NCBI GenBank assembly: GCA_963662285.2 | Contig: CAXXMV010000006.1 | Span: 1,056,001 to 1,120,000 of the forward strand | Source: a bacterium | GTDB taxonomy: Bacteria; Hinthialibacterota; Hinthialibacteria; Hinthialibacterales; Hinthialibacteraceae | Direction of reading: 5' to 3' | Length of the DNA: 64,000 bases | In this document: in pieces, positions 25,568 through 51,085 of the stretch | How positions within the stretch are numbered: the first letter of the stretch is position 1 | How the letters are laid out: the number at the start of each line of letters is the position of its first letter | Notes under the pieces: generated by a model | Databases searched by the model: none | What the model saw: only the letters and a program-made list of their open reading frames with translations | Told to the model about the DNA's origin: nothing | Program-made: the position numbers and the translations under genes

Positions 25568-28500
25568 ATGGTTACCCTCTTTGGAATACTAAATGTTGGC
25601 GCTCGTGGATTGAGCGCAGCTCAATCCGGGCTTAATACCGCAGGTAATAATGTCGCCAACGTTAACAATGAAGCATATTCACGCCAACGGATTGTTCAGA
25701 CTACGATCGATCCGATCATGTTTCCCAATGGAGCGGCAGGGCAGGGAGTAAGCGTCGTAACCATTGAACGTATTAGAGATATGCTTTTGGAAACTCAGAT
25801 CAATAATGCGACCAGTGATAAGAATTTCAATGAACAACTGAATTCGATTATTGATCGAATCGGATCAATAATGAATGATCCATTGACTACGATATCCGAT
25901 ACTTCGAATAACAGCTCAAATGGAGGGCTGAATAATCTTTTATCCAATTTTTTTGATGCTTTCCATGAACTAACAAATTCTCCGGAAGCGCCTGAAGTCC
26001 GTTCAGCTGTGGTGGAAAGCGCGCGAACATTAGCAGAGTCATTTTCTTCCATCGCGAACGATTTTGGCTCATTGCGTAGTGACCTTAATGAACAAGTAAA
26101 ATTTTATACAGCGGAAATAAACCAAAAAACGCAGGAGATTGCCAGTCTAAATGAAAGGATTGCGGCGGCGGAGGGAGGCAGCAAGGTAAATGCCAATGAT
26201 TTTCATGACCGGCGCGATAAACTAGTTACAGAACTCTCAGAAATTGTTCCGATAAAAGTTATTGATAATCCTAATGGGACAATAAACGTCTCAATTGCCG
26301 GCCAAGCTGTTGTAGATAATGTCAATGCCACAATGCTCCAATTAGAAAGCGTTGATACTGAGAACCTTGATATCGTCAGTATTCGCATCGGCGCAGGGGG
26401 CATGGATGTCATAGATAAAGATATCAGAAACGGAAAACTGGGCGCCATCCTTGACGCCCGCGACCGTCTTGTGCCATCTCTTCAGGATCAGATTGATGAA
26501 TTAGCTCGCGGCGTTATGTATGAAGTAAATAAAATTCACTGTGGTTCTTCCGGCGTTGAGGGATATGACAAAGTCACCAGTAACTTTGATTTTCCGCAAG
26601 GTGCTGAAGATGAGGATAGTATAATAACGCTGGATCGAATTTTCAATAATCCGGTATTATCCAGTAGGAAAAGCATAGGTAATAGTCCATACCCGGTGCA
26701 AAATGGAACGTTCTCCATCAGGGTGGCGGATGAAGATAATAAGGCTCGTGATGTTTTTGATGTAAATATTAACGTCGAAGACACCTTGAATGATATAGTT
26801 GAACGTATAGACCGCAGTGATGGTGTAGTAAGCAGCGTTCGTTCATCACTGAAGTTTGATCCGGTTTATATTGCAAAGGTGCAGGGTAATTTAGGAGCGG
26901 ATGCAACTGAATTGCCTGGCGCAATTGCTTCGTTTGCGTCATTAGAAGGGAAGCCAATTGCAGAGGCAGCAGGTGATTATACCTTCGATATTCGTCTGCG
27001 GAATCCAGCGGGAAGTGAAGTGGATTCCGACCCGAATACGAGTGGCATTAATCCCTTTACGGTTACGATCAACAGCGCAATGACGCTGCAAGAGGTGGCC
27101 GCTGAAATACAGAATACCGGCGCCGGTAGAATCCGTGCGCAATTAGTAACCAGTACTACTGATCCCGATAGTACCGTTTTGCGGATAGAGGCAATTGAGA
27201 GAGGCGCCACAATCTCTTTTGAAAATGATAATTCCGGAATTGTCCAAGGTTTTGACTTTCCTATAACTGATCCATCTGTTCCCTTGATTGGCGGCAATGC
27301 GACAAAAACGCAAACCGTTTTTACCGGAGACTCAGCGGACTCTTTGCTGGGAGCGGGCGGCCCGAATTTTAACACAGTTTACGCCGGACCTCCTCCGACT
27401 ATTATCGGCGAAGGCAGTTTTGATTTTGTTATAGTTGATAACAATAATATTCCCGTCATGCATACCATTGACATTGCGGCGGCTGGCGTGAATACGCTGG
27501 ATGAACTGGCTGCGCAAATGGAGGGATTTGATAACAATATCAATGTGGAAATTACAGCCGATAATGAATTCATCATTACAGCTGATAATAATCGCTCATT
27601 CTTTTTCCGCAATGATACCACCGGTCTGGTGGAAGCGATGGGCTTTTCTGAAATTGATGGATTCGGAAAGATAGGCGACCAGCCATTTCAGGAAGGCAGT
27701 TTCGAAATAATAGTTGCGGAAAAAGATGGTAAAGTTACTCATATAGTTGAGGTTCCGGTTCAAGCGGATTCATCCAAAACGGGCGGTGTTTTTACGCTTA
27801 ACGATATTGTTGAGCAGATAAATCGCACAACTAGTGATTATAGCGCTCCTTTAAGGGCTTCTATCGTGAGCGATCCAAGCGACCCAACTAAAAATCAATT
27901 GCAAATTAAATCAGAAGAAGGTTATGAATTTACATTTCGCAGTGACGACAGCCTTCTTCTTTCCGCGCTAGGTTTTACAAATGGTCCGGTTTTGGCCGCA
28001 ACCGGAGATAATCCGATACTAGGCGCGGATCAGACTATATCGATTGGAGATTCAATCGGCGGCATCGTGCGGGCGCAGATTATAAACAACGATATCATAG
28101 AGATTTCAACTACGGATAATGATCAAATAACCTTTGTTGGTGATAGCAGTTATTTCCTGGCAGCTGTCGGCATCAATTCGTTGTTCAATGGAACTGATGC
28201 GTTATCAATGGAAATAAACCAGGATATAAAGAAAAATAATAATCTACTGGGAGCTTCGAAAGACGGTGCACGGGGAAATAACGAATCAGCGTTGGCTATA
28301 GCGCAATTGCAAGACAAGATTGTTATCGACAAGATGACGCTGAACGAGTTTTACCGCTCAGCAGTAGCCAGTCTGGGCAACGAGGGAAGCCGCACCAGAC
28401 AGTTTCTTCAAACGACTGAAGATATCCTGCGCGAACTGGAAACATTGCGCGAACAAAATTCCGGAGTATCTCTGGATGAGGAATCTCTCAATATTATCCG

Positions 28501-28588
28501 TTTTCAACAAGCCTATCAGGCATCAGCGCGTTTTATCTCCACAATCGATGGCCTGATTGATGTAATCATCAATCAAATAGGCGCCTAA
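25568..28588 (+). CDS. flgK: Flagellar hook-associated protein 1, extended (1006 aa)
   Basis: GLSAAQSGLNTAGNNVANVNNEAYSRQR N-terminus; SGVSLDEESLNIIRFQQAYQASAR C-terminus. Confidence 0.93.
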   Translation: MVTLFGILNVGARGLSAAQSGLNTAGNNVANVNNEAYSRQRIVQTTIDPIMFPNGAAGQGVSVVTIERIRDMLLETQINNATSDKNFNEQLNSIIDRIGSIMNDPLTTISDTSNNSSNGGLNNLLSNFFDAFHELTNSPEAPEVRSAVVESARTLAESFSSIANDFGSLRSDLNEQVKFYTAEINQKTQEIASLNERIAAAEGGSKVNANDFHDRRDKLVTELSEIVPIKVIDNPNGTINVSIAGQAVVDNVNATMLQLESVDTENLDIVSIRIGAGGMDVIDKDIRNGKLGAILDARDRLVPSLQDQIDELARGVMYEVNKIHCGSSGVEGYDKVTSNFDFPQGAEDEDSIITLDRIFNNPVLSSRKSIGNSPYPVQNGTFSIRVADEDNKARDVFDVNINVEDTLNDIVERIDRSDGVVSSVRSSLKFDPVYIAKVQGNLGADATELPGAIASFASLEGKPIAEAAGDYTFDIRLRNPAGSEVDSDPNTSGINPFTVTINSAMTLQEVAAEIQNTGAGRIRAQLVTSTTDPDSTVLRIEAIERGATISFENDNSGIVQGFDFPITDPSVPLIGGNATKTQTVFTGDSADSLLGAGGPNFNTVYAGPPPTIIGEGSFDFVIVDNNNIPVMHTIDIAAAGVNTLDELAAQMEGFDNNINVEITADNEFIITADNNRSFFFRNDTTGLVEAMGFSEIDGFGKIGDQPFQEGSFEIIVAEKDGKVTHIVEVPVQADSSKTGGVFTLNDIVEQINRTTSDYSAPLRASIVSDPSDPTKNQLQIKSEEGYEFTFRSDDSLLLSALGFTNGPVLAATGDNPILGADQTISIGDSIGGIVRAQIINNDIIEISTTDNDQITFVGDSSYFLAAVGINSLFNGTDALSMEINQDIKKNNNLLGASKDGARGNNESALAIAQLQDKIVIDKMTLNEFYRSAVASLGNEGSRTRQFLQTTEDILRELETLREQNSGVSLDEESLNIIRFQQAYQASARFISTIDGLIDVIINQIGA

Positions 28589-28603
28589 TTAAGGTGAATT
28601 ATC

Positions 28604-31333
28604 ATGGTTCGAATTACGCAAAATCTAATAAGCGACCGGACGTTATTCAATCTTCAGCGAGGTATCAAGAGGTATACTGATGCTCAGAATGTTGTATCTA
28701 CCGGACAGAGGATCACCAAGCCGGTGGATGATCCTATCGGCTTCCCGGTAGCGTTGAATCTTCGATCTTCGATTCAGCAGGGGCGCAGTTTTCAACGCAA
28801 TGTGGAATCGGCTCGTGGTAATCTTGAGTTGACTGAAACCACCATGAATAGTTTGACTGAGACGCTGCAAAGCATACGCAGTTTAAGCGTGCAAGGTGGA
28901 AACAGTATTGATCCTAATGCCCGGATTTCCATTGCTGAACAAATAGCGGAATTATACGGACATATCTATGATCTATCCAATACTGATTACAAAGGCCAAT
29001 CAATCTTTGGCGGCAGCGTTACTGATGGAAACGCTTTTAGCGTAAAAGATAATGCGATTATTTATAATGGCGATGATTTTGAACGAAACATGATGATCAG
29101 CAAGAATGCGCAAATCACCAATAACCTGAATGGCTTCGATACCTTCCTGCATACTCCTAACCAGATCACCGGAGCAGTGAGCATTGAAGATGTTTCCGCG
29201 CCTTTATATCAACAATTAAGCAAAGCCAATCCCAATTTCACCAATCTTCCTGCGGTGACTGATGGTCCTCAGGGAGCGTTGGTTGATCCGTCGCCCAATC
29301 CGAACAATAGCCCTACTGAATTGCCCAACCAGTATGCCTCGTTTGAAATATATGGTAATGAAATTCGCGTTGATATTTCAACCGATTCGCTGGAAGATGT
29401 TGTTGATCGAATTAATGTGCAAGTAGAGGATGTCACTGCCAGCATTAATGAACGGAACCAGTTGGTAATTACATCAAAAAGAACCGATGGACTTGACTTA
29501 AGTGATGGTGAACGGCAACTGGGTTTTGAACCGGATACTCCCAATGGCTTAAATTTATTGAGCGCCTTGGGGATGAATCGGGTAGTGGAAAGTTCGCGTC
29601 CGCTAACCCGTGGGTATCCCGCAACCGATCCGATTACTGATGGAACTATCAGTCCCGCTCCAGCCAGGGGCGGAGTAAGCGTAAAGAATAGTTCTTTTCT
29701 TTTTGCGGGAACCAATAATGGTCCTTATGATAATCCTGCTGTTCCTTTCGGAGATAACCTGGCAATAACCAATATCGATTCTGAAGGGAATGACGCCTAT
29801 CTCGCCAATGGCGATCCTGATTTTATTAATGAACTGGAAGCGATTCGGATTACTATTGATGACGAGGTGATTGATATCGACTTACGCGCATTAACGGAAG
29901 GTCGCGATTTCGATGCAGTGGTTGGTAATGATGACGATATGCCTGGTTCGACGGTAGAGGATCTACTGGAACTTATAAATAATCATCCCGCCCTTAAAGG
30001 GAGAGCGACAGCGTATATCAATGCAGACCAAAGCGGGATCAGTTTATCCGCAACCAGCAGTACTGATGTGTTTAAGGTGGATAACGTTCGCAAATTATTT
30101 GGCCGCGACATAACTCAGAGTGTCGCCATTGACGCCGTAACCAGTGATGTTACGGTGACCGACGCCGGAAGAATTTCAATGGATACCAAACTGGATGATC
30201 TGCCCGGCGCATTGGTCGATCCGGTTGACGGTAGTTTGGGAGTGCGCCGTGATGCGCCGCCTCCAATAGGCAGTGAGCCTAATCCAAACCGGGGATTAAT
30301 CGCCATTTCCAATGATGGAGATAATGTCGGCATCGATCTGCAGGATGCAGAAACTATCGGTGATGTGATTCGGGCTATTAATGATTCAAAAGTCGGCGTT
30401 GAAGCGCGCATCAATGAAAGCGGAACCGGCATCAATATTGTTTCTCTTCGAGCTGGTGAGGGTGAGTTGAGCATCGTCGACATGTTTGACGGAACTCTGG
30501 CCCGTGATTTAGGTTTGTTCAGTCCTCCAGCGCCGGTCCGGGTGCAATCCAGTGCTGGTTTAGCTGAAACCGACATTCTGGGCGCCTCATTCGGGACTAT
30601 GTCGAATGGTTCGTTTGATATAGAAGTGCGTGATGGAGCTGGAAGAACGCTTGATACATACACCATTGACGCCACTACCACGGATACCATAGAGAGCCTG
30701 GTGAAGAAAATTGATGAGTCGGATGGCAAAGCCGGGCCGGGCGGCGGTTTGATCTCAGCCTATTATAGCGGCGGCGAAATAAATATCGTCAGTAATTATG
30801 ATGGTCATGTAATTGTTATAGATCCAGCCAATGATACAACTGGAACCGACGCCGCTTCACGGATAACCAATCTGCTGGATATTGATGCTTATACATTTAC
30901 TCTTGAAACTGATACGCCAGCCACGGCTTATGAAAGCAAACAGAATACTGCTTCGATTATGGGAATCAGCGCCGATGGCGATGTTAATGAAATAGAAGAA
31001 CAGAATATTTTTAATACTGTAAAAAGCCTTGAAAATGCTCTCCGGCAAGATGACACGGAGGGGATTTCGCAAGCATTAACCAATATTGATAAAGACCTGG
31101 AAGCGATTCTTAATAAACGAACCACTCTGGGCGCTCGAATCAACCGCCTGGACGCAACCTCAGCTAATTTGCAGGATGGCGAAGATTTTATGCGCCAGGA
31201 ACTATCCAGCATTGAAGATGCGGATTTGGCCGCATCGGTCTCAGAAATGACCTTGGCGCAGAATGCCTTCAATGCGGCGCTATCAGCGTCATCAAACGTG
31301 ATCCAACAGTCGTTGATGGATTTTCTTCGGTAG
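28604..31333 (+). CDS. flgL: Flagellar hook-associated protein 3, extended (909 aa)
   Basis: MVRITQN...STGQRITKPVDDP N-terminus; LGARINRL...LSSIEDAD...QQSLMDFLR C-terminus; directly after flgK. Confidence 0.9.
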   Translation: MVRITQNLISDRTLFNLQRGIKRYTDAQNVVSTGQRITKPVDDPIGFPVALNLRSSIQQGRSFQRNVESARGNLELTETTMNSLTETLQSIRSLSVQGGNSIDPNARISIAEQIAELYGHIYDLSNTDYKGQSIFGGSVTDGNAFSVKDNAIIYNGDDFERNMMISKNAQITNNLNGFDTFLHTPNQITGAVSIEDVSAPLYQQLSKANPNFTNLPAVTDGPQGALVDPSPNPNNSPTELPNQYASFEIYGNEIRVDISTDSLEDVVDRINVQVEDVTASINERNQLVITSKRTDGLDLSDGERQLGFEPDTPNGLNLLSALGMNRVVESSRPLTRGYPATDPITDGTISPAPARGGVSVKNSSFLFAGTNNGPYDNPAVPFGDNLAITNIDSEGNDAYLANGDPDFINELEAIRITIDDEVIDIDLRALTEGRDFDAVVGNDDDMPGSTVEDLLELINNHPALKGRATAYINADQSGISLSATSSTDVFKVDNVRKLFGRDITQSVAIDAVTSDVTVTDAGRISMDTKLDDLPGALVDPVDGSLGVRRDAPPPIGSEPNPNRGLIAISNDGDNVGIDLQDAETIGDVIRAINDSKVGVEARINESGTGINIVSLRAGEGELSIVDMFDGTLARDLGLFSPPAPVRVQSSAGLAETDILGASFGTMSNGSFDIEVRDGAGRTLDTYTIDATTTDTIESLVKKIDESDGKAGPGGGLISAYYSGGEINIVSNYDGHVIVIDPANDTTGTDAASRITNLLDIDAYTFTLETDTPATAYESKQNTASIMGISADGDVNEIEEQNIFNTVKSLENALRQDDTEGISQALTNIDKDLEAILNKRTTLGARINRLDATSANLQDGEDFMRQELSSIEDADLAASVSEMTLAQNAFNAALSASSNVIQQSLMDFLR

Positions 31334-35594: not shown

Positions 35595-36683
35595 TTATTC
35601 TATATCTTCTTTTACAGGTAATCTGATAATAAAAGTAGAGCCTTTTCCCTCTTCGCTTTTGAAACTTAAATTCCCATTATGCGCTTCAATGATCCGCTTG
35701 GTTATGGCTAAACCCAAGCCCGTACCTTTTTCTCCCTTGGTGGTAAAAAATGGTTGCCAGATTTTATCCTGTATGTCTGTAGGGATTCCACATCCTGTAT
35801 CGATAATATTGATCGTAATTTCTTTTTTATTGGAATTTACTTCAATAATCACGGAACCTTCTCCGTTCATGGCGTGGGCGGCATTTCGCAATAAATTGAT
35901 TAATACTTGAATGATTCGATCCTGGTCGCAGATAAAACAAGGATCGTCAGGATTTGTTATTTCATATTGGATGTGTTTAGTTTCTGGATCGAATTCGAGA
36001 ATGCTTAAAACCGGTACAAGTAATTTAGAAACGGCAATAGATTCCTGTTTCAAGGTCTCGCACGTCTGTTTCCCATACGATTTTATTTCGTTCAGGATAG
36101 TCAATATCCGGTCTCTAGCCATAACCACCTGATTGGAGACCTTATTGATCAATTCATCGTCTGGATGCATCTGTTGAATGAGTTGCACGCCCATCAATAC
36201 ACTAAGTTGGTTACGTACTTCATGGTTGATGCCGCTAGCCACCTGACCGACGGTCGCCAGTTTTTCCAACCGCACCACATCGTCTAATAATCTCCGATTT
36301 TCAATAGTTAATTCCAAATTTTCAAGCGCCCTTTTTACCGTGATCAATAAATCATTCGGATCCCATGGTTTATTGATATAGCGATAGACGCGGCCAGTGT
36401 TTATCGCCCCGATCAAATCATCAACATCAGTAAAACCAGTAAGAATGATGCGTACAATTCCCGGACATAATTCAATACTTTTTTCAAGGAATTCAACACC
36501 GGACATTCGCGGCATGCGTTGATCGCTAACAATCAGAGAGACCTGATGGGTTTGCAACAATTCCAGTCCTTCCGCTCCGCTTAAAGCCGTCAAGACTTCA
36601 TAATCTTTTCTCAAAACGCGCCGAAGCGCATCAAGGTTATATTCTTCATCATCCACACAGAGAATCGTATGCTTGAAACTCAT
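35595..36683 (-). CDS. Hybrid receiver-histidine kinase (REC-HisKA-HATPase)
   Basis: LCVDDE, SDQRMP, KPW; HEVRNQL; NLLRNAAHAM; GTGLGL. Confidence 0.92.
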   Translation of the reverse strand: MSFKHTILCVDDEEYNLDALRRVLRKDYEVLTALSGAEGLELLQTHQVSLIVSDQRMPRMSGVEFLEKSIELCPGIVRIILTGFTDVDDLIGAINTGRVYRYINKPWDPNDLLITVKRALENLELTIENRRLLDDVVRLEKLATVGQVASGINHEVRNQLSVLMGVQLIQQMHPDDELINKVSNQVVMARDRILTILNEIKSYGKQTCETLKQESIAVSKLLVPVLSILEFDPETKHIQYEITNPDDPCFICDQDRIIQVLINLLRNAAHAMNGEGSVIIEVNSNKKEITINIIDTGCGIPTDIQDKIWQPFFTTKGEKGTGLGLAITKRIIEAHNGNLSFKSEEGKGSTFIIRLPVKEDIE

Positions 36684-36720: not shown

Positions 36721-37305
36721 TCATTTGAATTTTTTTAATACTGTCAACAAACGGTTGATATCTACCGGTTTGATAATGAAATCGGTAGTTCCCCATTTCA
36801 AGGCTTCTTGTAAATAGTTCTTTTTCGGATTACCGGTCATAATAACCACCGGTGTTGTTGTATCGGTTTCCCTGATTATCCGGAGCGCATCCAAACCACT
36901 CATTTTTTTCATCTCGATATCCATTAAGACAAGGTCGGGTTGAACATCGTGGAATATACCTACGGCTTCCAGACCGTTGCCCGCCTCGGCCACAACATTA
37001 TAACCGTTAAGAATTAAAGTCCGCTTGATCATTTCACGGATGAAAACCACATCATCGACAATCATTATGGTGTTAATTGTTTTAGGGGATGAAATGGCCT
37101 GATCTTCATCAGGAACAACTGGCTTGGGCGCTAGAAAGGCAAGGGGTTCTTCCTGGGTTTCAACGCCCATGTGTTTGCGCCATTTTATGATTGTTTGCCG
37201 GAGATCATCGGTATCAATGATTCCGGAGTTGATCAGCACATCCGCTAATGCATATACAAATACTTGTTCAGTTTCCGAAGAAGGCTTCTCACTATTTTCA
37301 TTCAT
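36721..37305 (-). CDS. CheY-like response regulator with a short N-terminal helical domain
   Basis: IMIVDD, LMDIEM, MTG, KP; ~75-aa N-terminal extension. Confidence 0.88.
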   Translation of the reverse strand: MNENSEKPSSETEQVFVYALADVLINSGIIDTDDLRQTIIKWRKHMGVETQEEPLAFLAPKPVVPDEDQAISSPKTINTIMIVDDVVFIREMIKRTLILNGYNVVAEAGNGLEAVGIFHDVQPDLVLMDIEMKKMSGLDALRIIRETDTTTPVVIMTGNPKKNYLQEALKWGTTDFIIKPVDINRLLTVLKKFK

Positions 37306-37374: not shown

Positions 37375-39456
37375 TTAAGGACGAATTGGTAAATTGAGAG
37401 TAAACAGAGCACCTTTTCCTGGTTCACTTATAACCGCTATACTACCCCCATGCTGTTCGATAATACTATATGAGATAGATAATCCTAAACCGGTTCCTTC
37501 ACCTACCGATTTTGTCGTGTAGAAAGGATCAAATATTTTCTCTTGGATATCAAGGGGGATTCCTTTGCCGTCATCACGAATTTCCACTACGGCCTTATCA
37601 TCATCCCGGTAGGTCGTGATCCAAACATTGCCCTGGCCTTCAATGGCCTGTTCTGCATTCGCTAATAGATTCAGGAAAACTTGATTGATCTGCCCAGGGG
37701 AACATTGCAGGAGAGGAATGTCGCCGTAATCTTTATGGATGGTTACATGTTCTTTGTAACGGTGGATCAGCAAATTGAGAGAACCATCGATTGCTTCGTG
37801 GATATCGTAAACTGAACGATAACTCTCATCCACGCGAGAATACTGGCGCAGATCAGCCACAATCTGCGCGATACGGTTCGAGCCATCGTCAAAAGAGCGA
37901 ATCAGTTTTTCCACATCATCTTTGGCGTAATCCAAATCCGCTTTGCGATAGGCCTCATCGAATAGGGAGCGAAGTTCATTGGGCAATTGTTCTTTTCTTT
38001 CGTATATGTCATCCACAATATTCTTATATCCAAACAAGTATTCTTTTAAGGAAGGGATGTTGCTTTTAATGAAATTGCTGGGATTATTGATTTCGTGGGC
38101 GATTCCCGCAACCAATTGCCCCAGAGAGGCCATTTTTTCCGAACGCAGCAATTGTTCCTTGGTGCGTTGAATCCGGTCATAACTTTTATATAGCATGATA
38201 AAAAGCCCGGCGGCGAATATTAAGATAAACAGGAACAACGTCATTAACCAAACGCCCGACATCTGCATGGGGACTCGAATATTAGCGGGCAAGGTTTGCA
38301 AAAAACGTTCAATGGAGTGGTATTGATCTTCATTGATAGATATGAGAAGAACGACCATTACGAAAAGTACAAATCCCTGTGTGAGAATCGGGAAGAAAAA
38401 CCAACAAGAACGGCTAATACTGAAATCCTGCATTTTTCTTTGACTTAAATTATCTCTATCTTCCATGGGATTTGATAGAAACATGAAAATCAATAAACAG
38501 TAGAGTCCGGATATTATAGCAAATGCAGCGCTTGGCCCGATTCTCTCTGGAATTTGGATATTGAGAATAATATCTGAAATTCCTATAAGACCTCCACATA
38601 AACCAGCCAGGAACAGGGTAACGGTCAATAATTCACCCTGTGGCATTTTTCGCAAGAACCCAGTTTTCGATTTCATTCCATAGAAGAGAGTTCCCCATAA
38701 AAGAACAATCAAACCTAGTAATACTGGATGGTGATCTGCTTGGATAAGATAGTATCCGAGTGCAAGCGATATGAAGATTCCTAGCCCGAATCCCAGTCGG
38801 CGCCATTTAATAGCAATCAAATATACCCACAGGCTGGAGCCAAAAACCAATAACAAGGAAGGCGTATCCACAAAATCCAAAATGCTGCTTCCCAGTAGGA
38901 TAGCCAATAGAAATAAGGTACTTAAAAGAATGTATCCTATGGAAACCGGAACGAGCGAACGTCTGACTTTCGTCTCATGGCAATGTTTCTTGGTTATTGC
39001 TGACGATCTGTTCATTAATAAAGCGGGGATCGGTAAAAGAAGACAAAAAGCAATTGAATATAAGAAAGTCAGCATACTTACGGCCAACGAAGCGGCAAGA
39101 TAATCCAAACTACTTAAACTACCGAGTATCTGAACGATCCCGATACTGTTTCCCAAAGCTCCGATAATCAGTAAGTTACGAATGACGCAATGCCAAAAAT
39201 AATCCCGATAAAACCGATCCTGTTTCGGTGACCGCCGATCAATCAAACTCGATGCTGCTTCTTTCATATCCCGAATCGAAAATTGGGTCCAGGTTAGTAA
39301 AAATCCACCTCCCAATGTCATGGTTAAAGAGGGATAGTCAATAAAAGACATAAATCCCACATCAAGAAACGCATAGCTGATTAATATCCCCACTAGCAGG
39401 ACAAGAAACAGAATAGCCAGGATAGCTGGAAAAAACCTTTGAAGCTCAGTATTCAT
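37375..39456 (-). CDS. Multi-TM histidine kinase with two tandem MotA/TolQ/ExbB-like membrane modules
   Basis: FIDYPSLTMTLGG...GALGNSIGIVQILGSL...LAVSMLTFLYS and FVDTPSLLLVFG...GLCGGLIGISDII...IGPSAAFAIISGLY; kinase motifs AHEINNP, NLLANAEQAI, GTGLGL. Confidence 0.8.
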   Translation of the reverse strand: MNTELQRFFPAILAILFLVLLVGILISYAFLDVGFMSFIDYPSLTMTLGGGFLLTWTQFSIRDMKEAASSLIDRRSPKQDRFYRDYFWHCVIRNLLIIGALGNSIGIVQILGSLSSLDYLAASLAVSMLTFLYSIAFCLLLPIPALLMNRSSAITKKHCHETKVRRSLVPVSIGYILLSTLFLLAILLGSSILDFVDTPSLLLVFGSSLWVYLIAIKWRRLGFGLGIFISLALGYYLIQADHHPVLLGLIVLLWGTLFYGMKSKTGFLRKMPQGELLTVTLFLAGLCGGLIGISDIILNIQIPERIGPSAAFAIISGLYCLLIFMFLSNPMEDRDNLSQRKMQDFSISRSCWFFFPILTQGFVLFVMVVLLISINEDQYHSIERFLQTLPANIRVPMQMSGVWLMTLFLFILIFAAGLFIMLYKSYDRIQRTKEQLLRSEKMASLGQLVAGIAHEINNPSNFIKSNIPSLKEYLFGYKNIVDDIYERKEQLPNELRSLFDEAYRKADLDYAKDDVEKLIRSFDDGSNRIAQIVADLRQYSRVDESYRSVYDIHEAIDGSLNLLIHRYKEHVTIHKDYGDIPLLQCSPGQINQVFLNLLANAEQAIEGQGNVWITTYRDDDKAVVEIRDDGKGIPLDIQEKIFDPFYTTKSVGEGTGLGLSISYSIIEQHGGSIAVISEPGKGALFTLNLPIRP

Positions 39457-39572: not shown

Positions 39573-40649
39573 TTATTCGTATTCTTTTGTAAGTTTTAAA
39601 ATCTCATCCAAGTTTTCACAAAAGAGATCAGTTAAATCTGGATCAAAATGCTTCCCTTTTTCCTCTCTTATAATTTCAATTACTTTCTCATGAGGAAAGG
39701 CTTCTTTGTAAGGCCGCTTACTGGACAGAGCATCATAAACGTCCGCAAGCGCGCATATTCGGCCAGAGAGTGGAATATCTTCCCCCTTAAGCTGCTTTGG
39801 ATATCCCTTTCCATTCCACTTTTCATGATGGGAAAGGGCGATTATTTCCCCGGTTTGGATCAATTCAGAGGCAGAATCATTCAAAATACTGGCGCCAATC
39901 GTCGTATGTTTTTTAATGATTTCATATTCATCAACTGTTAACTTAGCGGGTTTAAGAAGGATATGATCGGGAATTCCAAGTTTGCCTACATCATGCATGG
40001 GACTGGCGAGTCGTATCAATTCAACATCATTTGCAGGAAGATTGAGTTTTAGGGCTATAAACTCACAGATCAAGCTAATTCGTTGTATGTGATTCCCTGT
40101 ACATTCATCTTTATATTCGGCAGCGATCACCAAACGCCGAATAGTATCTAAATGAGCTTGATGAGATTGTCGCTGGGCTGCGACCATTTCGTCGAGCGCT
40201 TTGCGCAGTGAAGCCGTACGTTGGTCGATTTTTGCTTCGAGTTCTTTTTGATAAATTTTTATAGCATCCTGCGCTTCTTTTTGTCTCAACAAAGAAGCCG
40301 TACGAATCCGTAATTCTATTTCATCAACAGGTTTGCAGATAAAATCACTGGCCCCCGCTTGCACAGCGCGAAGTTGATCTTCTTTTGATGTATTGCCAGT
40401 TACAACGCAAATAGGGATATCACGAACATCGGCGTCTTCCCGGATTCGCCGAACTACTTCAAAACCATCCATTCCGGGCATTTGTATATCGGTTAAAACC
40501 AGATCGATATCGAGTTTTACTTTGGCTAAAGCTTCGAATCCATCCTGAGCGGTTTCCGTTTCATGCCCGTGAAAATTCAAAATCGTGGCAAGCATATCAC
40601 GCAAGGCCTGTTCGTCGTCAACAATCAAAATACGTTTGGGAGAAGCCAT
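39573..40649 (-). CDS. Response regulator with HD-GYP c-di-GMP phosphodiesterase domain (RpfG-like)
   Basis: REC (ILIVDD, TDIQMP, KP); HDVGK; HHEKWNGKGYP; DVYDALSSKRPYK. Confidence 0.93.
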   Translation of the reverse strand: MASPKRILIVDDEQALRDMLATILNFHGHETETAQDGFEALAKVKLDIDLVLTDIQMPGMDGFEVVRRIREDADVRDIPICVVTGNTSKEDQLRAVQAGASDFICKPVDEIELRIRTASLLRQKEAQDAIKIYQKELEAKIDQRTASLRKALDEMVAAQRQSHQAHLDTIRRLVIAAEYKDECTGNHIQRISLICEFIALKLNLPANDVELIRLASPMHDVGKLGIPDHILLKPAKLTVDEYEIIKKHTTIGASILNDSASELIQTGEIIALSHHEKWNGKGYPKQLKGEDIPLSGRICALADVYDALSSKRPYKEAFPHEKVIEIIREEKGKHFDPDLTDLFCENLDEILKLTKEYE

Positions 40650-40911: not shown

Positions 40912-42105
40912 TTAATTCGACTTAATTGGCAGTGACACAATAAATTTCGACCCTTTACCCATTTCGCTCTCCACCGCGATTCTTCCCTCATGTTGTTCAA
41001 TAATGCTGTAAGAAAGAGAAAGGCCCAGGCCAGTACCTGAACCAACCGGTTTTGTTGTAAAGAAGGGATCAAATATCTTGGATAGATTCTCTTTAGGAAT
41101 ACCAACGCCATTATCACGGATAGTAATTGTGATATTATTATCCTGATATCCGGTAAGCACCCAAATATCACCTCCGCTCTGATTAAATTCTATAGCGTTC
41201 TTGAGGATGTTAAAAAAAACTTGATTGATTTGACCGGGAGAACAGCGAGTCAGCGGGAATGATTTATATTCTTTATGTATGTTTATTTGATCTTTATAGA
41301 GAGGATAAAGCAATGTAAGCGACGAATCGATTGCTTCTTGAATATTGAAGGAAGAATAGTAGTCATCATCGACTTTGGAATATAGACGAAGATTATACAG
41401 GATACTGGCTATGCGATTTGAACCTTCATCAAAAGAGTCAAGAATTTTTTTTATGTCATCTAAATCATAATCGATCTCTTTCATCTTTTGCGGCAGATTT
41501 ATTTTTTTTAATACATCTTCAGGAATCTTTTGTTGATTATCAACAATAATTTTTACAAAAGAAAACAAATCCTGAATATCTTCCTTAAGCGGTTGTATAT
41601 TGCTTTTAATAAAGTTAACCGGATTATTAATCTCATGACACAATCCCGCAACAAGTTGCCCCAGAGACGCCATTTTGTCGGTTTGTATCAATTGCTGCTT
41701 TCGTAATTGGATCTGTTCTTCCATGCTTTTACGTTCTAGAACCCGGTTCAGGACTTGCAACAGATAATCCAAATCCAACGGTTTGGTAACAAAATCCGAT
41801 GCGCCGTTTTTCATGGCTTCAATAGCGCGTTCAACTGTCCCATAGGCTGTCATTATCACAACCGGGATATGAATTTTACGTTTTTGCAGTTCTGCTAACA
41901 GTTCAAGGCCATTGATTTCAGGCATCATGATATCAGAAATAATAATCGACGGCGTGCAGCTTTCTAATTTCGTTAATGCATCGGATCCATTGGATGCCGT
42001 GATTGTTTCAAAACCTTCCAACTCAAGAAAATCGCAGAGACTCAAACGGATATCTTCTTCATCGTCAATCACAAGCAATGGAATTTTATGTTCGATATCT
42101 CTCAT
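40912..42105 (-). CDS. Hybrid receiver-histidine kinase
   Basis: LVIDDE, SDIMMP, KP; [19 protein letters not shown]; GTGLGL. Confidence 0.92.
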
Positions 42106-42108
42106 GGT

Positions 42109-42477
42109 TTACTCCTTATCAATAAGATGTCTGATAGCAGAGAGTAGAAAATCTTCATCAAAAGGTTTGAGCAATACCTCATCAGCGCCCAATTTCCTGG
42201 CTAGTTCTCTCGTTCCTCTTTGAGAGGAGGCGCTGACGATCACAACCGGTAGGTCGGGATGATTTTTTTTAATCCTTTGGAGCACTTCTATACCATCGAT
42301 GCCCGGTAATTTAATATCTAAAATAACCAGATCGGGAATTTTGGTTTCCAACCAGATCAGTGCATCTTCACCGGTTCCCACCAATTCTGAGGCATAGCCC
42401 TCAAACTCCAGCAAGTCGACCATACTTTCAGCGAGTTCCAGTTCATCGTCTACGATTAAAATTTTTGTTTCTGACAT
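42109..42477 (-). CDS. Single-domain response regulator
   Basis: ILIVDDE, LDIKLP, VSA, KPF; 122 aa. Confidence 0.92.
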   Translation of the reverse strand: MSETKILIVDDELELAESMVDLLEFEGYASELVGTGEDALIWLETKIPDLVILDIKLPGIDGIEVLQRIKKNHPDLPVVIVSASSQRGTRELARKLGADEVLLKPFDEDFLLSAIRHLIDKE

Positions 42478-44744: not shown

Positions 44745-46823
44745 TTAAAAGCGATACGTCAGTTTTGCGTAAACGCCGCGTTCGACTTCGGAATATTTTG
44801 TATACCAGCCATTTGCTTCATGCGTCTGATCGTCGAGCAAGTTAGTTCCAACGACGCTTATTTCAAAGTTGTCGCTTGGCTTCCACCCTAATCGTATGTC
44901 CAGTCGCCCGTGTTGTGGTATCCGCCAATTATTGATTTCATCGATCCAGTAATAGGAAGCATCCAACTTCACGTCCCTCGTAATATCGAAATAGGAGTTG
45001 ATTTTAATTTGATGGTGAGGTGACGAATCCTCAAGGAAGTAAAAAAGCAAATCGTTTGAATTGTTCTTGCGGTGCAACTGAATTTCCAACGCCGAGTAAC
45101 TGGTCGTTAGTTTCCAATAATCGGTGATCTGCGCGTTGGCGGCTAATTCCACGCCATAGGTTTCTCCCGTGATATTATTGTGACTATACCCATCCACAAT
45201 ATAATACATAATAGGATTTGTATATAAAGTTGGATTGCTATAGTCGCCGTCGATTGTAGCATAATCATCAATCAGAGTGTAAAATGCAGAAAGATCGAAA
45301 GATAACTTCCGCGACGCTTGCAACCTTTGACCTAGTTCAAAAGATAAAATGCTTTCTGATTTTAATCGATCACCATTTTGTAACTGCAATAGCATGGGAA
45401 TCATGCTGCCTTGATAAGGATAATCAAGCGTATACATGAAAAATTCTTCATCACTATGTCCCTTGTAATAATGTTGAGCGGATCGAGCAATGGACGCCCA
45501 AAGCGTGTATTGTTCGTAGGGAGTATAAATTAATTTAACGCTGGGTTGATAATCAAAATCGGAATAATCGCTATACTGAAACTGCGAGCCGTACAACAAC
45601 CTCAGTTTATCTTCAACGATTGTGAAATTATCTTGAAAAAATGCAGTAAATGTTTGATCATTGGAATGTAATGGATCATACGTACAAAATCCATTATGTA
45701 TATCATCGGACACAAGCCTATATCCACTACCAACGATGAAATCATGATTGGGAAATGGAGTAAACTGGTATTCAAAATCGGTCTTAAAAGTATGATAATT
45801 GACGTTCACAACTATATCGTGATCTAACGAAAAATAATCGTAATAAGTTAGCCATTTCATCCTGGAACCATCGTCATAGGCGTGATCCCATTGAACCAGG
45901 AAATCGAGATTTTTTTTATCTTTTTCATAACGATTTTTTACTTGATATAATTCAGGGGGGATATATACATTCGGCCAAGACACCCAAACGTCGTCTTTAC
46001 GCGCATCGCCTTGAAAGGTCAATGCGTCCTGCTCGGAAAGTTCCCAATCAATGCGAAAACCGGCATGTCCCAAGGACCAATCATCCACAAAATCCTTTCC
46101 ATCGACCGTATTATTACTGTCGACGTCCTTATAAGCACCGTAAACTCGATAGAAGGCATTTTCGCTTATTTTCCCGCCATATCGAAAAACGCTTTTGTAT
46201 AAGTCCGTCCCTGCGACGCCAGAGATAAGACCTCCTTGCGAGTATTTCGCATGCTTTGTAATAACATTAATAACGCCATTGCCTGAATTCGTTCCCCAAA
46301 GCGTCCCCCCCGGTCCTCGAATGATTTCAATTCTTTCTATGTCTTCCAAAGGATAGTCCTGAATACTCCAGAAAACTCCACCCCAATTTAAATAGTTCAC
46401 TTGACGTCCATCGATTAATACCAAAAGATCGACGCAATATTCGTTCGCCAGACCTCTTGAACTGACTAGCCATGTGCTGGAATCAGCATTACCAACGAAC
46501 AATCCGGGAACCATGCGTAATAGATCGGGGATGTTAGTGGCGGCGGAGCGGGAGATATCCGTGGCTGTTATGACATAGGCGGCAGCGGGGGTTTCCCATA
46601 CTTTCTGTGGCGTCTTGGAGGCAAGCGAGATATATTCTTGAATAATGATTTCCGACAGTTCATCGATATCTTTCAGAAGCAGTTCCTTCATGCCGCTTGA
46701 TGAGTCCTCTTCGACTGCATCAACAGGAAGAGTGAAAAGAATGAATATAATCGCCAGGCAAGCGATTTGCCGCAATAGCTGGTTAACGCTAAATAGAGAA
46801 TTTTTTCGTATAGTTTCATCCAT
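44745..46823 (-). CDS. TonB-dependent receptor, array copy 6
   Basis: Plug motifs TPAAAYVIT, LVLIDGR, IERIEIIRGPGGTLWG; C-terminal KLTYRF. Confidence 0.92.
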   Translation of the reverse strand: MDETIRKNSLFSVNQLLRQIACLAIIFILFTLPVDAVEEDSSSGMKELLLKDIDELSEIIIQEYISLASKTPQKVWETPAAAYVITATDISRSAATNIPDLLRMVPGLFVGNADSSTWLVSSRGLANEYCVDLLVLIDGRQVNYLNWGGVFWSIQDYPLEDIERIEIIRGPGGTLWGTNSGNGVINVITKHAKYSQGGLISGVAGTDLYKSVFRYGGKISENAFYRVYGAYKDVDSNNTVDGKDFVDDWSLGHAGFRIDWELSEQDALTFQGDARKDDVWVSWPNVYIPPELYQVKNRYEKDKKNLDFLVQWDHAYDDGSRMKWLTYYDYFSLDHDIVVNVNYHTFKTDFEYQFTPFPNHDFIVGSGYRLVSDDIHNGFCTYDPLHSNDQTFTAFFQDNFTIVEDKLRLLYGSQFQYSDYSDFDYQPSVKLIYTPYEQYTLWASIARSAQHYYKGHSDEEFFMYTLDYPYQGSMIPMLLQLQNGDRLKSESILSFELGQRLQASRKLSFDLSAFYTLIDDYATIDGDYSNPTLYTNPIMYYIVDGYSHNNITGETYGVELAANAQITDYWKLTTSYSALEIQLHRKNNSNDLLFYFLEDSSPHHQIKINSYFDITRDVKLDASYYWIDEINNWRIPQHGRLDIRLGWKPSDNFEISVVGTNLLDDQTHEANGWYTKYSEVERGVYAKLTYRF

Positions 46824-46868
46824 AATTCATTCTCCTGACATTGCTTCATTTTACTATTACAAAAATCA

Positions 46869-48926
46869 TCAAAACCGATACGTCAATTTGCCGTATACGC
46901 CGCGCTCGACTTCGGTGTAGGCTGTATACATCCCATTCGCTTCGTGCGTCTGACTATCAAGTAAATTGGTCCCAACAAGGCTTATTTCCAATTGTTTAGA
47001 TGGTTCCCAGCCCAACCGCACATCAAGTCGTCCATGCGGTGGGATTCCCCAATTATTGATTTCATCAACAAAGTAATAGGATGCATCCAGTTTCACATCT
47101 TTTGTTATATCTAAATACGAATTTATTTTGAACTGATGATGGGGTGAACTATCTTCCAGAAAATACCACACGAAATCATTAGAATTATTCTTGAGATGTA
47201 ACTGAATATCTAATGCCGAGTAACTGGCCATCAGTTTCCAGGAATCCGTGATGTTTGCGTTTGCAGCCAGTTCCACACCATATGTTTCACCATCTATATT
47301 GTTTCCCGGGAAAGCGAAAACTATTAAATGTGGAATCGGATCGGCAAAAAAGACTGGCTGATCCCAATTCGTATCAGCTGTTAGATGGTCTTCTAAAATA
47401 TTATAAAAAGCAGAGAATTCGAATGACAGATATCTCGTTGCTTGAAGCCGTTGACCGATTTCGAAGGTGAGTTTGTTTTCTGAATTCGCATGTCCTTCAT
47501 CACAAAAAGAAGCCAACATCGGGATCGTACCTGAGCCGTAAGGAAAATCCAGTGCGTAAAAAATAAAACTATTCTCATTCATAACTCTGTAGTAATGATT
47601 AGCAGATCGAGTAACGGACGTCCAAACCGTATATTGTTCGTATGGAGTATAAACTAATTTAGCGCTGGGCTGATAATCAAAATCGGAATAATCGCTGTAT
47701 TGAAATTGAGAACCCAACGAAAGTTTCAGTTTATCTTCGATGATGGTGTAATCATCTTGAATGAAAGCAGTAAATGTCTGATCGTTAGCGCTAGGCGGTT
47801 CGTAATGCAATGCGCCATTTTTAACATCATCTGATACAAGGCGATATCCACTCCCTATGATAAATTCATGATCGGGGAAAGGATTAAACTGGTATTCAAA
47901 ATCCGTTTTAAACGTATGATAATTTAAATTTACTACATAATCATTGTCCAAATTAAAATAGTCGTAATACGTAAGCCATTTCATTTTGGATTCATCATCA
48001 AACGCATGATCCCATTGAACCAGTAAATCCAATCCTTCTTTATCTTTGATATAACGGTTTTTAACTGGGAAGAATGGTTCTTCCCGGACTCCAGGAGAAA
48101 AATGAGTAAACCAGGCATTATCTTGATATGCAGTTCCTTGAAAAGTAAGTTCATTCTGATCGGAGGGCTGCCAATCAATTCGAAAACCAGCTTTGCCATA
48201 CGACCAATCATCCACAGAATTGTTACCATTCCCATCTTTGAATGAATCAACGTCTTTATAAGTACCATAGACGCGGTAAAAAGCATCTTCGCCCATCTTT
48301 CCGCCATGCCGGAAAACGCCTTTATATAAATCCGTCCCGGCGATGCCAGAAAGAAGCCCACCCTGCGTATTTTTGGTGTGCTTGGTAATAATATTAATGA
48401 CGCCATTACCTGAATTCGTGCCCCATAACGTGCCGCCAGGCCCACGAATAATTTCTATTCTCTCTATGTCTTCAAGTGGATAATCCTGAATACTCCAAAG
48501 GACGCTGCCCCAACTTAAAAAGTTCACTTGACGGCCATCAAGTAATACCAGCGTATCAATCCCGTATTCATTCGCCAGACCTCTTGCTCCAACGATCCAG
48601 GTGCTGGAATCCGTATTACCGACGAACATACCCGGTACCATGCGTAATAGATCGGGGATATTTGTCGCAGCAGAACGAGATATATCCGTGGCTGTGATTA
48701 CATAAGCGGCGGCAGGCGTTTCCCAGACTTTCTCAGGTCTCTTGGATGCGAGCGAGATATATTCCTGAACGATGATATCCCCCAATTCGTCGATGTCGGT
48801 TTCAAGCATCGATCTCAAGCGCTCGTCTGAACTCTCTTCGGCGGCGGTGAGTGGAAGAGTGAAACAGCAAATCAGTAACACAAATACGCTTGTTTGCAGC
48901 AACCTCTTGTTGTGTTGTACCATCAT
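46869..48926 (-). CDS. TonB-dependent receptor, array copy 5 (different signal peptide)
   Basis: Same plug and barrel motifs; ends KLTYRF. Confidence 0.92.
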   Translation of the reverse strand: MMVQHNKRLLQTSVFVLLICCFTLPLTAAEESSDERLRSMLETDIDELGDIIVQEYISLASKRPEKVWETPAAAYVITATDISRSAATNIPDLLRMVPGMFVGNTDSSTWIVGARGLANEYGIDTLVLLDGRQVNFLSWGSVLWSIQDYPLEDIERIEIIRGPGGTLWGTNSGNGVINIITKHTKNTQGGLLSGIAGTDLYKGVFRHGGKMGEDAFYRVYGTYKDVDSFKDGNGNNSVDDWSYGKAGFRIDWQPSDQNELTFQGTAYQDNAWFTHFSPGVREEPFFPVKNRYIKDKEGLDLLVQWDHAFDDESKMKWLTYYDYFNLDNDYVVNLNYHTFKTDFEYQFNPFPDHEFIIGSGYRLVSDDVKNGALHYEPPSANDQTFTAFIQDDYTIIEDKLKLSLGSQFQYSDYSDFDYQPSAKLVYTPYEQYTVWTSVTRSANHYYRVMNENSFIFYALDFPYGSGTIPMLASFCDEGHANSENKLTFEIGQRLQATRYLSFEFSAFYNILEDHLTADTNWDQPVFFADPIPHLIVFAFPGNNIDGETYGVELAANANITDSWKLMASYSALDIQLHLKNNSNDFVWYFLEDSSPHHQFKINSYLDITKDVKLDASYYFVDEINNWGIPPHGRLDVRLGWEPSKQLEISLVGTNLLDSQTHEANGMYTAYTEVERGVYGKLTYRF
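46903..47078. repeat. 176-bp direct repeat, copy A (3' end of receptor copy 5)
   Basis: Reads identical to 51120..51295; part of a longer ~570-bp near-identical block (~46505..47078 vs ~50722..51295). Confidence 0.85.
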
Positions 48927-48967
48927 TCATTCTCCACAATTTCGCTGACTTACATTACAAAAAAAAA

Positions 48968-51040
48968 TCAAAACCGATACGTCAGTTTGACGTACACGCC
49001 GCGCTCGACCTCCGAGGGTTTTCTATACACCGCCTTTGCCTCATGCGTTTGATCGTCCAGCAAATTCGTTCCGACCAGACTTATTTCCAAATTGTTTTTT
49101 GGTTTCCAACCCAAGCGGATATCGAGTCTTCCGTGTTGGGGTATTCCCCATCCTTCTATTTCATCGATAAAGTATAAGAAGGCGTCCAATTTAACGTCTT
49201 TCGTTAGATCGAAATAAGATTGAATGGATGCCTGATGGTGAGGTGATGAATTTTCTAGAGAATAATAATAAAAATCATTCGAGTTGTTCTTATGATGGAA
49301 CTGAATATCTAATACGGAATAACTGGCCATTAACTTCCAAAAATCGGTAATTTGTTCCGTCATGGACAGTTCCGCACCATACGTTTCTCCATTGATATTA
49401 TTACCCCAATATTCATAAACAACATAATGGGGAAGGGGATCCATATAGTAAGAAACGCGATCGTAATCCGCATCTAGAGTGATGAAATCATAGATCGTCG
49501 TGTAAAATGCCGTTAGATCGAACGATAGATTTCTTGTAGCCCGATATCGTTGACCTAATTCATACGATAGGATACTTTCAGACTTTAATCGTTCGCTATA
49601 ATTGACATACAATAACATGGGAATCCCATCCGGCGCAGACGTTGTAAGATTCGGCCACGATGAATCATAATTAAGGGGAAAATAATGTTGGGCGGAACGA
49701 GTGATAGAGGCCCAAATTGTATACTTTTCTGTTGGTGTATATACTAATTTGGCGCTGGGTTGGTAATCGAAATCAGAATAGTCGCTATATTGAATCTGAA
49801 TGCCGAGTGATAGTTTAAGTAGGTCTTCTGCAATAGAATAATTATCTTCGATAAAAACGCTTCCCGTTTGATCGTTGGCGTGACTGGAATTATATACGAT
49901 CGTTCGATCGGTCATATCGTCCATCGTAAGCTGATATCCACTTCCCACGATAAATTCATGATTGGAAAAGGGAGTAAACTCGTACTGAACGTTCGTTTTA
50001 ATATCGTGGTAATTGAACTTGGAAACAAAGTCATTGTCCAATAAAAAGTAGTTATAATAAGTATGCCATTTAATCTTAGAATCATCGTCTAATGTACGTT
50101 CCCAGAGAACTTGCAAATCAAGGCCCCTTTTATCGTATTCATATCGAGATTTAACAGGGAAAATTTCGGGAAGATCAATTTCTGGAATATACCAGGCGTA
50201 CCACACGTCGTTTTGAAATATCTCGCCTTGGAACGTAACATCGTCCTTTTCTGAAGGTGCCCAATCGATGCGAAAGCCGCTTTTGGCGTTAGACCAATCA
50301 TCGACGGAATCCTCTCCATTCGGAAATTTGAAACTATCGGCGTCACGATAAATCCCATATATACGATAATAAGCATCGTCCCCCATTTTCCCGCCGTATC
50401 GGAACACGCTTTTATACAAATCCGTCCCGGCGACGCCGGAAATCAAACCGCCTTGTGTGTCTTTCGCATGTTTTGTGATGATATTGATGACGCCGTTACC
50501 GGAATTCGTTCCCCAAAGCGTGCCGCCCGGACCTCGAATGATTTCTATACGTTCGATGTCCTCTAATGGATAATCAAGAATGTCCCAAAACATTCCGCCC
50601 ATTACTAAATCGTTTGTTTCGCGTCCGTCAAGTAAAATAAGTAATTCTGTAGTGTGCTCGGTTGCCAATCCTCGGGATCCGATTACCCATGTGTTTGAAT
50701 CCCCTCTTCCAACGAACAAACCGGGAACCATGCGCAGGAGATCGGGGATGTTGGTCGCGGCGGAGCGGGAGATATCCGTGGCTGTTATGACATAGGCGGC
50801 GGCGGGGGTTTCCCATACTTTCTGTGGCGTCTTGGATGCGAGCGAGATATATTCTTGAACGATGATTTCCGACAGTTCATCGATATCTTTCAGAAGCAGT
50901 TCCTTCATGCCGCTTGATGAGTCCTCTTCGACTGCATCAGCAGGAAGAGTGAAAAGCATGAATAGAATCGCCAGGCAAGCGATTTGCCGCAATAGCTGGT
51001 TAACGCTAAATAGAGAATTTTTTCGTATGGATTCATACAT
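48968..51040 (-). CDS. TonB-dependent receptor, array copy 4
   Basis: Same plug and barrel motifs; ends KLTYRF. Confidence 0.92.
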   Translation of the reverse strand: MYESIRKNSLFSVNQLLRQIACLAILFMLFTLPADAVEEDSSSGMKELLLKDIDELSEIIVQEYISLASKTPQKVWETPAAAYVITATDISRSAATNIPDLLRMVPGLFVGRGDSNTWVIGSRGLATEHTTELLILLDGRETNDLVMGGMFWDILDYPLEDIERIEIIRGPGGTLWGTNSGNGVINIITKHAKDTQGGLISGVAGTDLYKSVFRYGGKMGDDAYYRIYGIYRDADSFKFPNGEDSVDDWSNAKSGFRIDWAPSEKDDVTFQGEIFQNDVWYAWYIPEIDLPEIFPVKSRYEYDKRGLDLQVLWERTLDDDSKIKWHTYYNYFLLDNDFVSKFNYHDIKTNVQYEFTPFSNHEFIVGSGYQLTMDDMTDRTIVYNSSHANDQTGSVFIEDNYSIAEDLLKLSLGIQIQYSDYSDFDYQPSAKLVYTPTEKYTIWASITRSAQHYFPLNYDSSWPNLTTSAPDGIPMLLYVNYSERLKSESILSYELGQRYRATRNLSFDLTAFYTTIYDFITLDADYDRVSYYMDPLPHYVVYEYWGNNINGETYGAELSMTEQITDFWKLMASYSVLDIQFHHKNNSNDFYYYSLENSSPHHQASIQSYFDLTKDVKLDAFLYFIDEIEGWGIPQHGRLDIRLGWKPKNNLEISLVGTNLLDDQTHEAKAVYRKPSEVERGVYVKLTYRF

Positions 51041-51085
51041 AATTCATTCTCCCGTCATTGCTTCATTTCACTATATCAAAAATCA

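Follow-up and report, generated by a model that had tools for sequence, protein, structure and literature searches.

We know of no characterised member of the MotA/ExbB/TolQ/ZorA superfamily that is not an ion-driven motor. ExbB/ExbD, TolQ/TolR and ZorA/ZorB keep the aspartate of their B subunit and do mechanical work, ZorAB being a motor that serves a role other than motility. Sensing within the membrane is known from kinases of the DesK and LiaS/NsaS types and from the MASE or 5TM/7TM kinases. The present study concerns a gene in which these two themes appear to meet. It lies in a window of 64,000 nucleotides, the whole stretch of DNA analysed here, from a bacterium of the Hinthialibacteraceae (assembly GCA_963662285.2, contig CAXXMV010000006.1, positions 1,056,001 to 1,120,000), and it codes for a histidine kinase of 693 residues, P0001. 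In its product the membrane core of a motor appears to have been kept, the engine removed, and the remainder wired to a two-component kinase.

The closest described systems are the PomA/PomB and MotP/MotS stators, built of A and B subunits in a 5:2 ratio (PDB 8brd, 8bri, 8gqy and 6ysf; PMC10374538), with which P0001 shares the four-helix fold of the A subunit. In the passages of that report that deal with ions and force, Na+ is handled by PomB D24, by the carbonyl of PomA P151 and by the threonines T158, T185 and T186, motility of PomAB being abolished when any one of these threonines is changed to alanine, while the torque residues R88, E96 and D114 of PomA contact FliG (PMC10374538). Further likenesses are a D-x-x-S motif before transmembrane helix 2 (TM2), the glycines of TM3 and TM4 with a tyrosine, and a probable B-type helix of N-in topology placed after the A units. 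Unlike these stators, P0001 has its A, A' and B-like parts on one chain and a kinase instead of FliG as its target; it lacks the torque domain (the region of R88, E96 and D114 is deleted), the equivalents of PomB D24 and P151, and the peptidoglycan-binding domain of PomB and MotB, and its threonine triad is incomplete. By its sequence, P0001 is a homologue of PomA/PomB without the features that define a working stator. The 5:2 ion motors ExbB/ExbD, TolQ/TolR and ZorA/ZorB belong to the same superfamily but are far more distant from it than PomA. Like the intramembrane-sensing kinases, it has its input in the membrane, little extracytoplasmic domain and a last helix that leads into the DHp domain; unlike those named above, it has an input domain of apparent stator origin.

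Membrane modules and kinase core

The open reading frame (ORF) is, judged by sequence, an intact NtrB-type histidine kinase. A Pfam scan of the full-length protein returned only HisKA (aa 445-544) and HATPase_c (aa 589-692), both above their cut-offs, which upholds the fusion proposed in a preliminary description of this DNA and reveals no input domain besides the membrane bundle. In the alignment H454 and the N, G1, F and G2 boxes are all intact, as in NtrB/AtoS-type kinases, so that the conserved histidine of HisKA and the HATPase_c boxes that mark class I sensor histidine kinases are present. The best NCBIfam match is of NtrB/AtoS type (NF038348, AtoS; E 8.5e-80). P0001 nevertheless scores under every curated cut-off shown for models of this type, because its sensor is unrelated to theirs.

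Two sets of stator motifs, already noticed in the preliminary description, are found in the sensor: the N-terminal motif as FIDYPS from aa 38 and FVDTPS from aa 195, the C-terminal motif as GALGNSIG from aa 99 and GLCGGLIG from aa 285. The extents first proposed for the modules (aa 30-147 and 187-333) had to be corrected to about aa 10-147 and 168-330, the whole sensor running to aa 425. Profile searches, suggested at the outset as a check, recognise both modules with the NCBIfam PomA model (E 1.9e-4 on aa 1-160 and 1.2e-10 on aa 161-345), and phmmer of the sensor against the Protein Data Bank gave PomA/MotA chains in 8/8 rows (best E 8.6e-7). Pfam MotA_ExbB stays below threshold on the P0001 sensor alone (E 0.01, 16 bits, cut-off 22.9) and is not listed in the full-length scan; the homologous kinase P0005 passes the same cut-off with two stretches (E 1.6e-13). 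Modules 1 and 2 are weakly alike (Smith-Waterman score 52, reached by 17 of 2000 shuffles).

Structure prediction gives a similar picture, firmer for module 1 than for module 2. With an AlphaFold2 model of aa 1-430 (pLDDT 84.6, pTM 0.85), the six best structural matches (VIA) are MotA/PomA, all to module 1 (Z 8.4-11.2, rmsd 2.0-4.2, 111-151 aligned residues), headed by 8gqy (Z 11.2, rmsd 3.9, 151 residues); Foldseek with this model had no match at E <= 0.001 and placed PomA at rank 1. With a model of aa 161-430 (pLDDT 80.1), stator A chains filled the first 12 Foldseek rows (E 0.017-0.19, so that none reached E <= 0.001), and VIA scored MotA (Z 7.8-8.9) level with Cys-loop helix bundles. For module 2 the evidence of the modelled fold is weaker than that of the sequence.

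P0001 belongs by homology to the MotA/TolQ/ExbB superfamily, as profiles and fold both indicate, and the stator-derived sensor of the preliminary description stands on the PomA profile, the phmmer matches and the structural matches. Its modules are, by sequence, of PomA/MotP and not of ExbB/TolQ type, so that the ExbB origin also entertained there finds no support. Profiles of the family described below retrieve PomA/MotA among PDB chains with E-values between 1e-34 and 1e-5, a family profile matching PomA at about 1e-30; ZorA follows at E 0.5-1.4, and no ExbB/TolQ chain is listed at E <= 10; among NCBIfam models, PomA/MotP/MotA come first for the query and for 8/8 relatives tested, tolQ appearing once (E 0.053). 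No ExbB/TolQ chain occurs among 50 VIA rows of the two models, a count that leaves a shared fold possible. The sensor matched no MASE or 5TM/7TM model at E <= 10, which disposes of the alternative named at the outset, and PADLOC had no match for P0001.

What the modules have lost was read by mapping residues onto PomA of V. parahaemolyticus (L003). The cytoplasmic torque domain is gone from both, as had been proposed: the distance between D31 and G154, 123 aa in PomA, is down to 59 aa in module 1 and to 88 aa in module 2, the latter with a membrane hairpin inserted. Insertions at the same site of module 2 also occur in the three other kinase fusions and are absent from most standalone tandems. 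An equivalent of P151 exists in 0/146 mini-modules vs 12/12 canonical proteins, P0001 having L and F there. The triad of Na+-site threonines is complete in 8/146 modules and in none of the eight kinase modules, the positions of T158, T185 and T186 being N103, T130 and F131 in module 1 of P0001 and G289, S316 and G317 in module 2. P0001 thus lacks both the torque domain and TM3 proline of a stator A subunit and the triad of a Na+ stator; torque and ion-path residues are, as mapped, lost from its modules. The packing residues G154, G157, G161 and Y188 are retained. New features are conserved as well: Arg93 of module 1 sits at the position of PomA D148, where 31/32 A-type modules have an arginine, and a P-x-E-D motif follows TM4 in A'-type modules.

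The helix after the second module

The membrane helix at aa 351-375, which corresponds to the last helix, or tail, of the standalone tandem proteins, probably derives from the transmembrane helix of MotB/PomB, fused in cis. The preliminary description had found no B partner; this holds for the neighbouring genes, and the window yielded no MotB-like ORF, but a partner helix is probably present within the chain itself. Against a profile of eight MotB/PomB helices from annotated loci, 66 tails have a mean score of 10.4, vs 3.2 for the first helix of the same proteins and 2.5 for 32 unrelated membrane helices. Comparison of tails with MotB/PomB by hhalign gives a probability of 50% (E 1.6e-4; control 0.3%) and aligns T359 of P0001 with PomB D24, the ion-binding aspartate being absent from the tail helix. 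No D or E is present in the helix window of 55/66 tails, and the other 11 include cases with an E or D at its ends; 8/8 MotB have one.

A blind test points the same way. A hidden Markov model of 65 tails, with P0102 and all MotB left out, was searched against 479 ORFs taken from 14 loci and the window. The family's three tails came first, and MotB/PomB helices at ranks 4, 5, 7, 8, 10, 12, 13, 14, 15, 20 and 67, eight of them identified by a motif and the remaining three by inspection (two being unannotated ORFs right after motA). The tail of P0001, held out, matches a profile of 24 standalone tails of its subfamily at E 1e-7. In P0102, alone among 21 proteins with a single module and a tail, Pfam finds MotB_plug (E 1.4e-5), and P0102 also matches MotS (E 0.0096). 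Indirectly, residues ~111-270 of the aa 161-430 model (TM3, TM4, tail and return helix) align as one unit to four-helix membrane bundles. That the first helix of the kinases might be a copy of the tail was considered and rejected (ranks 15-98 of 113).

Several results weigh on the other side. Only 16/66 tails reach p <= 0.05 in within-helix shuffles (controls: 7/66 first helices, 0/32 unrelated), and the tail of P0001 taken alone is not significantly similar to MotB (shuffle p 0.19). Since the tails are related to each other, their profile scores are not independent draws. In the blind test the E-values of the ten top MotB/PomB are weak (0.024-4), and a profile of the subfamily that contains the kinases ranks the eight labelled MotB at 6-72 of 292. 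In P0101 the tail runs on into a FliL domain, so the tails may have mixed origins.

In the topology that we infer, the two modules finish on the cytoplasmic side, from which the B-like helix runs outward; some 25 aa follow on the outside before a return helix leads back in. These ~25 aa between tail and return helix had no Pfam match, and P0001 has no OmpA-like peptidoglycan-binding domain. Among tandems, the return helix occurs only in the four kinase fusions.

Relatives and gene neighbourhood

When 1.84 billion representatives were searched exhaustively by phmmer with aa 1-345 as query, 115 proteins including the query came up at E <= 0.001. They were classed automatically, some singles being fragments and a few rows perhaps misplaced, as four tandems with tail and kinase, 38 tandems with tail, one tandem without tail, 24 single modules with tail, 36 single modules and 12 canonical MotA. 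Shortened forms thus make up 103/115, and 99 of these 103 have no kinase; the kinase fusion asked after in the preliminary description recurs, in 4/115 matches. Pfam MotA_ExbB (PF01618) is found at E <= 0.01 in 101/114 relatives. The three other fusions, P0002, P0003 and P0005, have sensors 26-32% and kinase cores 50-59% identical to those of P0001, and all four keep a bundle of ~430 aa with both modules, the B-like helix and the return helix. In a module tree (139/159 rows after 20 gappy ones were dropped, 108 columns, quick search), the first module falls among standalone A proteins, P0009 for example (SH-aLRT 98), and the second among standalone A'+tail proteins, P0109 for example (SH-aLRT 97). 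Because the modules lie apart in the tree, either of them together with split-gene relatives of its own, a recent tandem duplication is rejected, and the unit is read as a heteromeric pair that occurs split, fused, or fused to a kinase.

The split form was seen at L001 and L002 (2/2 loci found), where genes for an ECF-type sigma factor, a single-pass putative anti-sigma factor, A and A'+tail follow each other. The anti-sigma factor, which has no Pfam support, is proposed from its position and hydropathy. We take these runs to lie downstream of an hpf/PTS IIA/HPr kinase/HPr/enzyme I cluster; no motB stands beside the split pairs. The two loci are close kin (the neighbouring enzyme I is 78% identical) and count as about one observation. 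A GTDB scan with one narrow motif gave 37 matches and two confirmed loci; having returned neither the genome of the window nor the kinase fusions, it is uninformative about the range of the family.

Other members carry extensions after the tail: the FliL domain of P0101, a MotB plug-like segment in P0102 and unidentified soluble regions in P0072 and P0110. Acidic or proline-rich C-terminal stretches with cysteine occur in P0034, P0060, P0070 and P0073. Word-index searches for homologues (~8000 candidates) returned only P0001 and P0019, and no longer fusion; within that limit, other fused outputs may exist. The nearest Atlas clusters, a lead only, are of unnamed proteins of 238-341 aa (scores 0.89-0.90), with PF01618 on 25-34% of the members in two of them. 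The plasmid collection had no match to the sensor; in the 20 plasmid records that match a relative with one module, the matching protein is, by annotation or by alignment, a full-length MotA/PomA. GenBank phages had no match. Several records of the plasmid collection, namely L003 (NZ_CP099936.1), L008, L011 and L014, have chromosomal-looking genes or a length of 2.6-4.9 Mb and may be mislabelled chromosomes or fragments. The full-text literature searched, with few subscription journals and no supplements, had no MotA-derived kinase sensor and no MotA-MotB-helix fusion, and we found there no description of what, by sequence, appears as a family of shortened stators with kinase fusions.

Table 1. 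Features of P0001, of its surroundings in the window and of the split loci
Feature	Position	Strand	Remarks
Sensor kinase gene, P0001	37375..39456	minus	693 aa; apparent pseudo-stator sensor and histidine kinase (ORF list, Pfam)
Mini-PomA module 1 (A type, aa 10-147)	39016..39429	minus	Four membrane helices; ~64 aa cytoplasmic domain deleted
Mini-PomA module 2 (A' type, aa 168-330)	38467..38955	minus	Sequence profile, model, residue mapping
Hydrophobic two-helix insertion in module 2 (aa 220-265)	38662..38799	minus	At torque-domain site
Probable MotB/PomB-derived membrane helix in cis (aa 351-375)	38332..38406	minus	Family-level evidence
Short linker, presumably periplasmic (aa 376-400)	38257..38331	minus	Short helix at MotB plug site in the model; topology predicted
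Return membrane helix, putative output helix (aa 401-425)	38182..38256	minus	Into kinase coiled coil
Kinase core, HisKA + HATPase_c	37378..38181	minus	H454 codon at 38095-38097
Receiver + HD-domain protein	39573..40649	minus	116 bp upstream of P0001; candidate phospho-acceptor (Pfam)
Receiver-domain protein	36721..37305	minus	69 bp downstream of P0001; candidate phospho-acceptor (Pfam)
Receiver + kinase hybrid	35595..36683	minus	Last gene of same-strand run (Pfam)
Six tandem TonB-dependent receptor genes	44745-57460	minus	
Split operon-like run, L001	6549-9000		Sigma, putative anti-sigma, mini-PomA, mini-PomA+tail
Split operon-like run, L002	6503-8997		Same order; encodes P0009 and P0109 exactly

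The nearest genes on either side of P0001 encode proteins with receiver domains (Table 1), and a further receiver lies at 42109-42477. The receiver-HD protein upstream is presumably a phosphodiesterase of HD-GYP type. A scan for promoters and terminators stayed at chance level (29 promoters vs 27.1). Farther upstream, five of the six TonB-dependent receptors share 62-73% identity among themselves and 42-44% with the first of the row (55331-57460). The single receptor tested is similar to the TOL_0244 type (E 6.4e-134, under the cut-off), and TOL_0244 is described, in a passage of PMC6304351, as similar to OmpS, an alkane-detecting receptor. After the receptors come a YfiR-like gene and a kinase that has a HAMP domain and matches CHASE8 weakly; gaps inside this unit measure 3-45 bp, and 262 bp separate it from the group of P0001. 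The unit looks like an expanded outer-membrane sensing array. The preliminary description had linked P0001 to the TonB system, a link that finds no support: the receptors have a YfiR-like gene and a kinase of their own, the 262-bp gap intervenes, and no TonB receptor is among the listed ORFs of L001 and L002. Signalling shared between the two groups is possible, given the 52% identity between the kinase core of P0001 and that of the hybrid kinase at 40912-42105.

Elsewhere in the window, the FlgK- and FlgL-like genes (25568-31333, plus strand) encode proteins of unusual length, 1006 and 909 aa, in which large insertions separate the conserved ends. An ORF of 1145 aa (7355-10792, minus strand) downstream of an RND efflux operon had no Pfam match at E <= 1e-4, and two short ORFs (60682-61447, minus strand) may, from the impression of their sequence, be transposase fragments.

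How the sensor may work

The explanation that we favour, plausible if just short of probable, is that P0001 is a non-conducting, self-contained pseudo-stator used as the intramembrane sensor of a kinase. The loss of ion-carrying and force-producing residues suggests a rotary motor repurposed in this way. The input would consist of two cut-down PomA-type subunits, A and A', and a PomB-type helix devoid of its aspartate, all in one chain. The B-like helix would rest against TM3 and TM4 as it does in a stator, unable to pass ions or to rotate. A perturbation within the inner membrane, such as stress on the membrane or the entry of a hydrophobic ligand or helix into the bundle, would shift the B-like helix relative to the A cage, and the short outer linker would hand this shift to the return helix, by which it would reach the DHp coiled coil. 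The latter would set the phosphorylation of H454 and thence of the neighbouring receivers, including the receiver-HD protein, with a likely effect on cyclic di-GMP turnover. A kinase dimer would bring together four A-like modules and two B-like helices, to be set against the 5:2 of stators; this is an argument from symmetry, as is the consideration that two A modules per chain would not readily fit five subunits. Stimulus, helix position, receiver and 4:2 assembly are conjectural parts of this scheme, and nothing in the evidence points to a particular stimulus, which speaks against it. Co-folding of two copies of aa 1-430 scored 0.00 in two runs without controls and bears neither way on dimers or on a 4:2 assembly.

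The preliminary description supposed that the protein reports ion-motive force. Sensing by ion flow is unlikely, since the aspartate of the B helix and P151 are lost, together with two threonines out of the three at the Na+ site; sensing of a cation or of voltage without conduction is conceivable. The same anatomy might have Na+ or membrane potential as its input, a vestigial PomA site binding Na+ without passing it and reporting salinity or sodium-motive force. This is unlikely, even if the nearest relatives are the Na+-type PomA and MotP and the position of T185 is T or S in 120/146 modules, including all eight of the kinases. The latter count also tells against our favoured explanation in its strict form, because it makes a residual cation site possible. 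G154 is moreover kept, T158 is present in module 1 of two of the four kinases, and the arginine at the D148 position could act as a charge sensor. Against such a role stand the B-like helix without aspartate and the residues of the query itself (N/G at T158, F/G at T186), in a triad that is variable from one kinase module to the next and complete in none.

Partners in trans offer a further explanation, which we regard as quite unlikely: the A modules would bind MotB/PomB or some other single-pass protein (an anti-sigma factor, ExbD or TonB), and the kinase would report stator assembly or the status of the TonB system. The flagellar genes of the window (FlgK- and FlgL-like), the TonB-dependent receptors nearby, the putative single-pass anti-sigma factor adjoining the split orthologues and the member fused to a FliL domain all fit such a scheme, but the B site appears to be filled in cis, the modules have no likeness to ExbB/TolQ, the receptors are of apparent TOL_0244 type with their own signalling genes, and no motB was found in the window or at L001 and L002. 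To a last possibility we give as little credence: the module would be no sensor at all, only a membrane anchor, scaffold or stress-protection protein (an output of the sigma regulon where it stands alone) that localises or dimerises the kinase. Genes in sigma operons can indeed be outputs rather than sensors, which, with the close kinship of the two split loci, weakens the case for sensing; most shortened forms have no kinase, and among the four fusions divergence is much faster in the sensor than in the kinase core. What speaks against a mere anchor is that the whole 430-aa bundle, with its B-like helix and the added return helix, is kept in all four fusions, that the kinase has no other input domain, and that the Arg/Asn of A-type modules and the P-x-E-D motif of A'-type modules are conserved.

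A wider version of the favoured explanation, doubtful as a whole, would have a widespread pseudo-stator family in which PomA and the PomB helix, fused and stripped of conducting and torque residues, form a modular sensor that acts in cis on a kinase or in trans on an ECF/anti-sigma pair. This sensor might form a closed ring of 4:2, unlike working motors, which are all 5:2, and it may read Na+ or potential through its vestigial site. If the pseudo-stator reading is true, many short proteins that score as 'MotA/TolQ/ExbB proton channel' would be mis-described as channels. Single-chain A-A'-B fusions would also offer a test of stator ratios other than 5:2 and of the purpose of the 5:2 asymmetry. 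And P0001 would stand for a new sensor domain, a rotary motor turned receptor.

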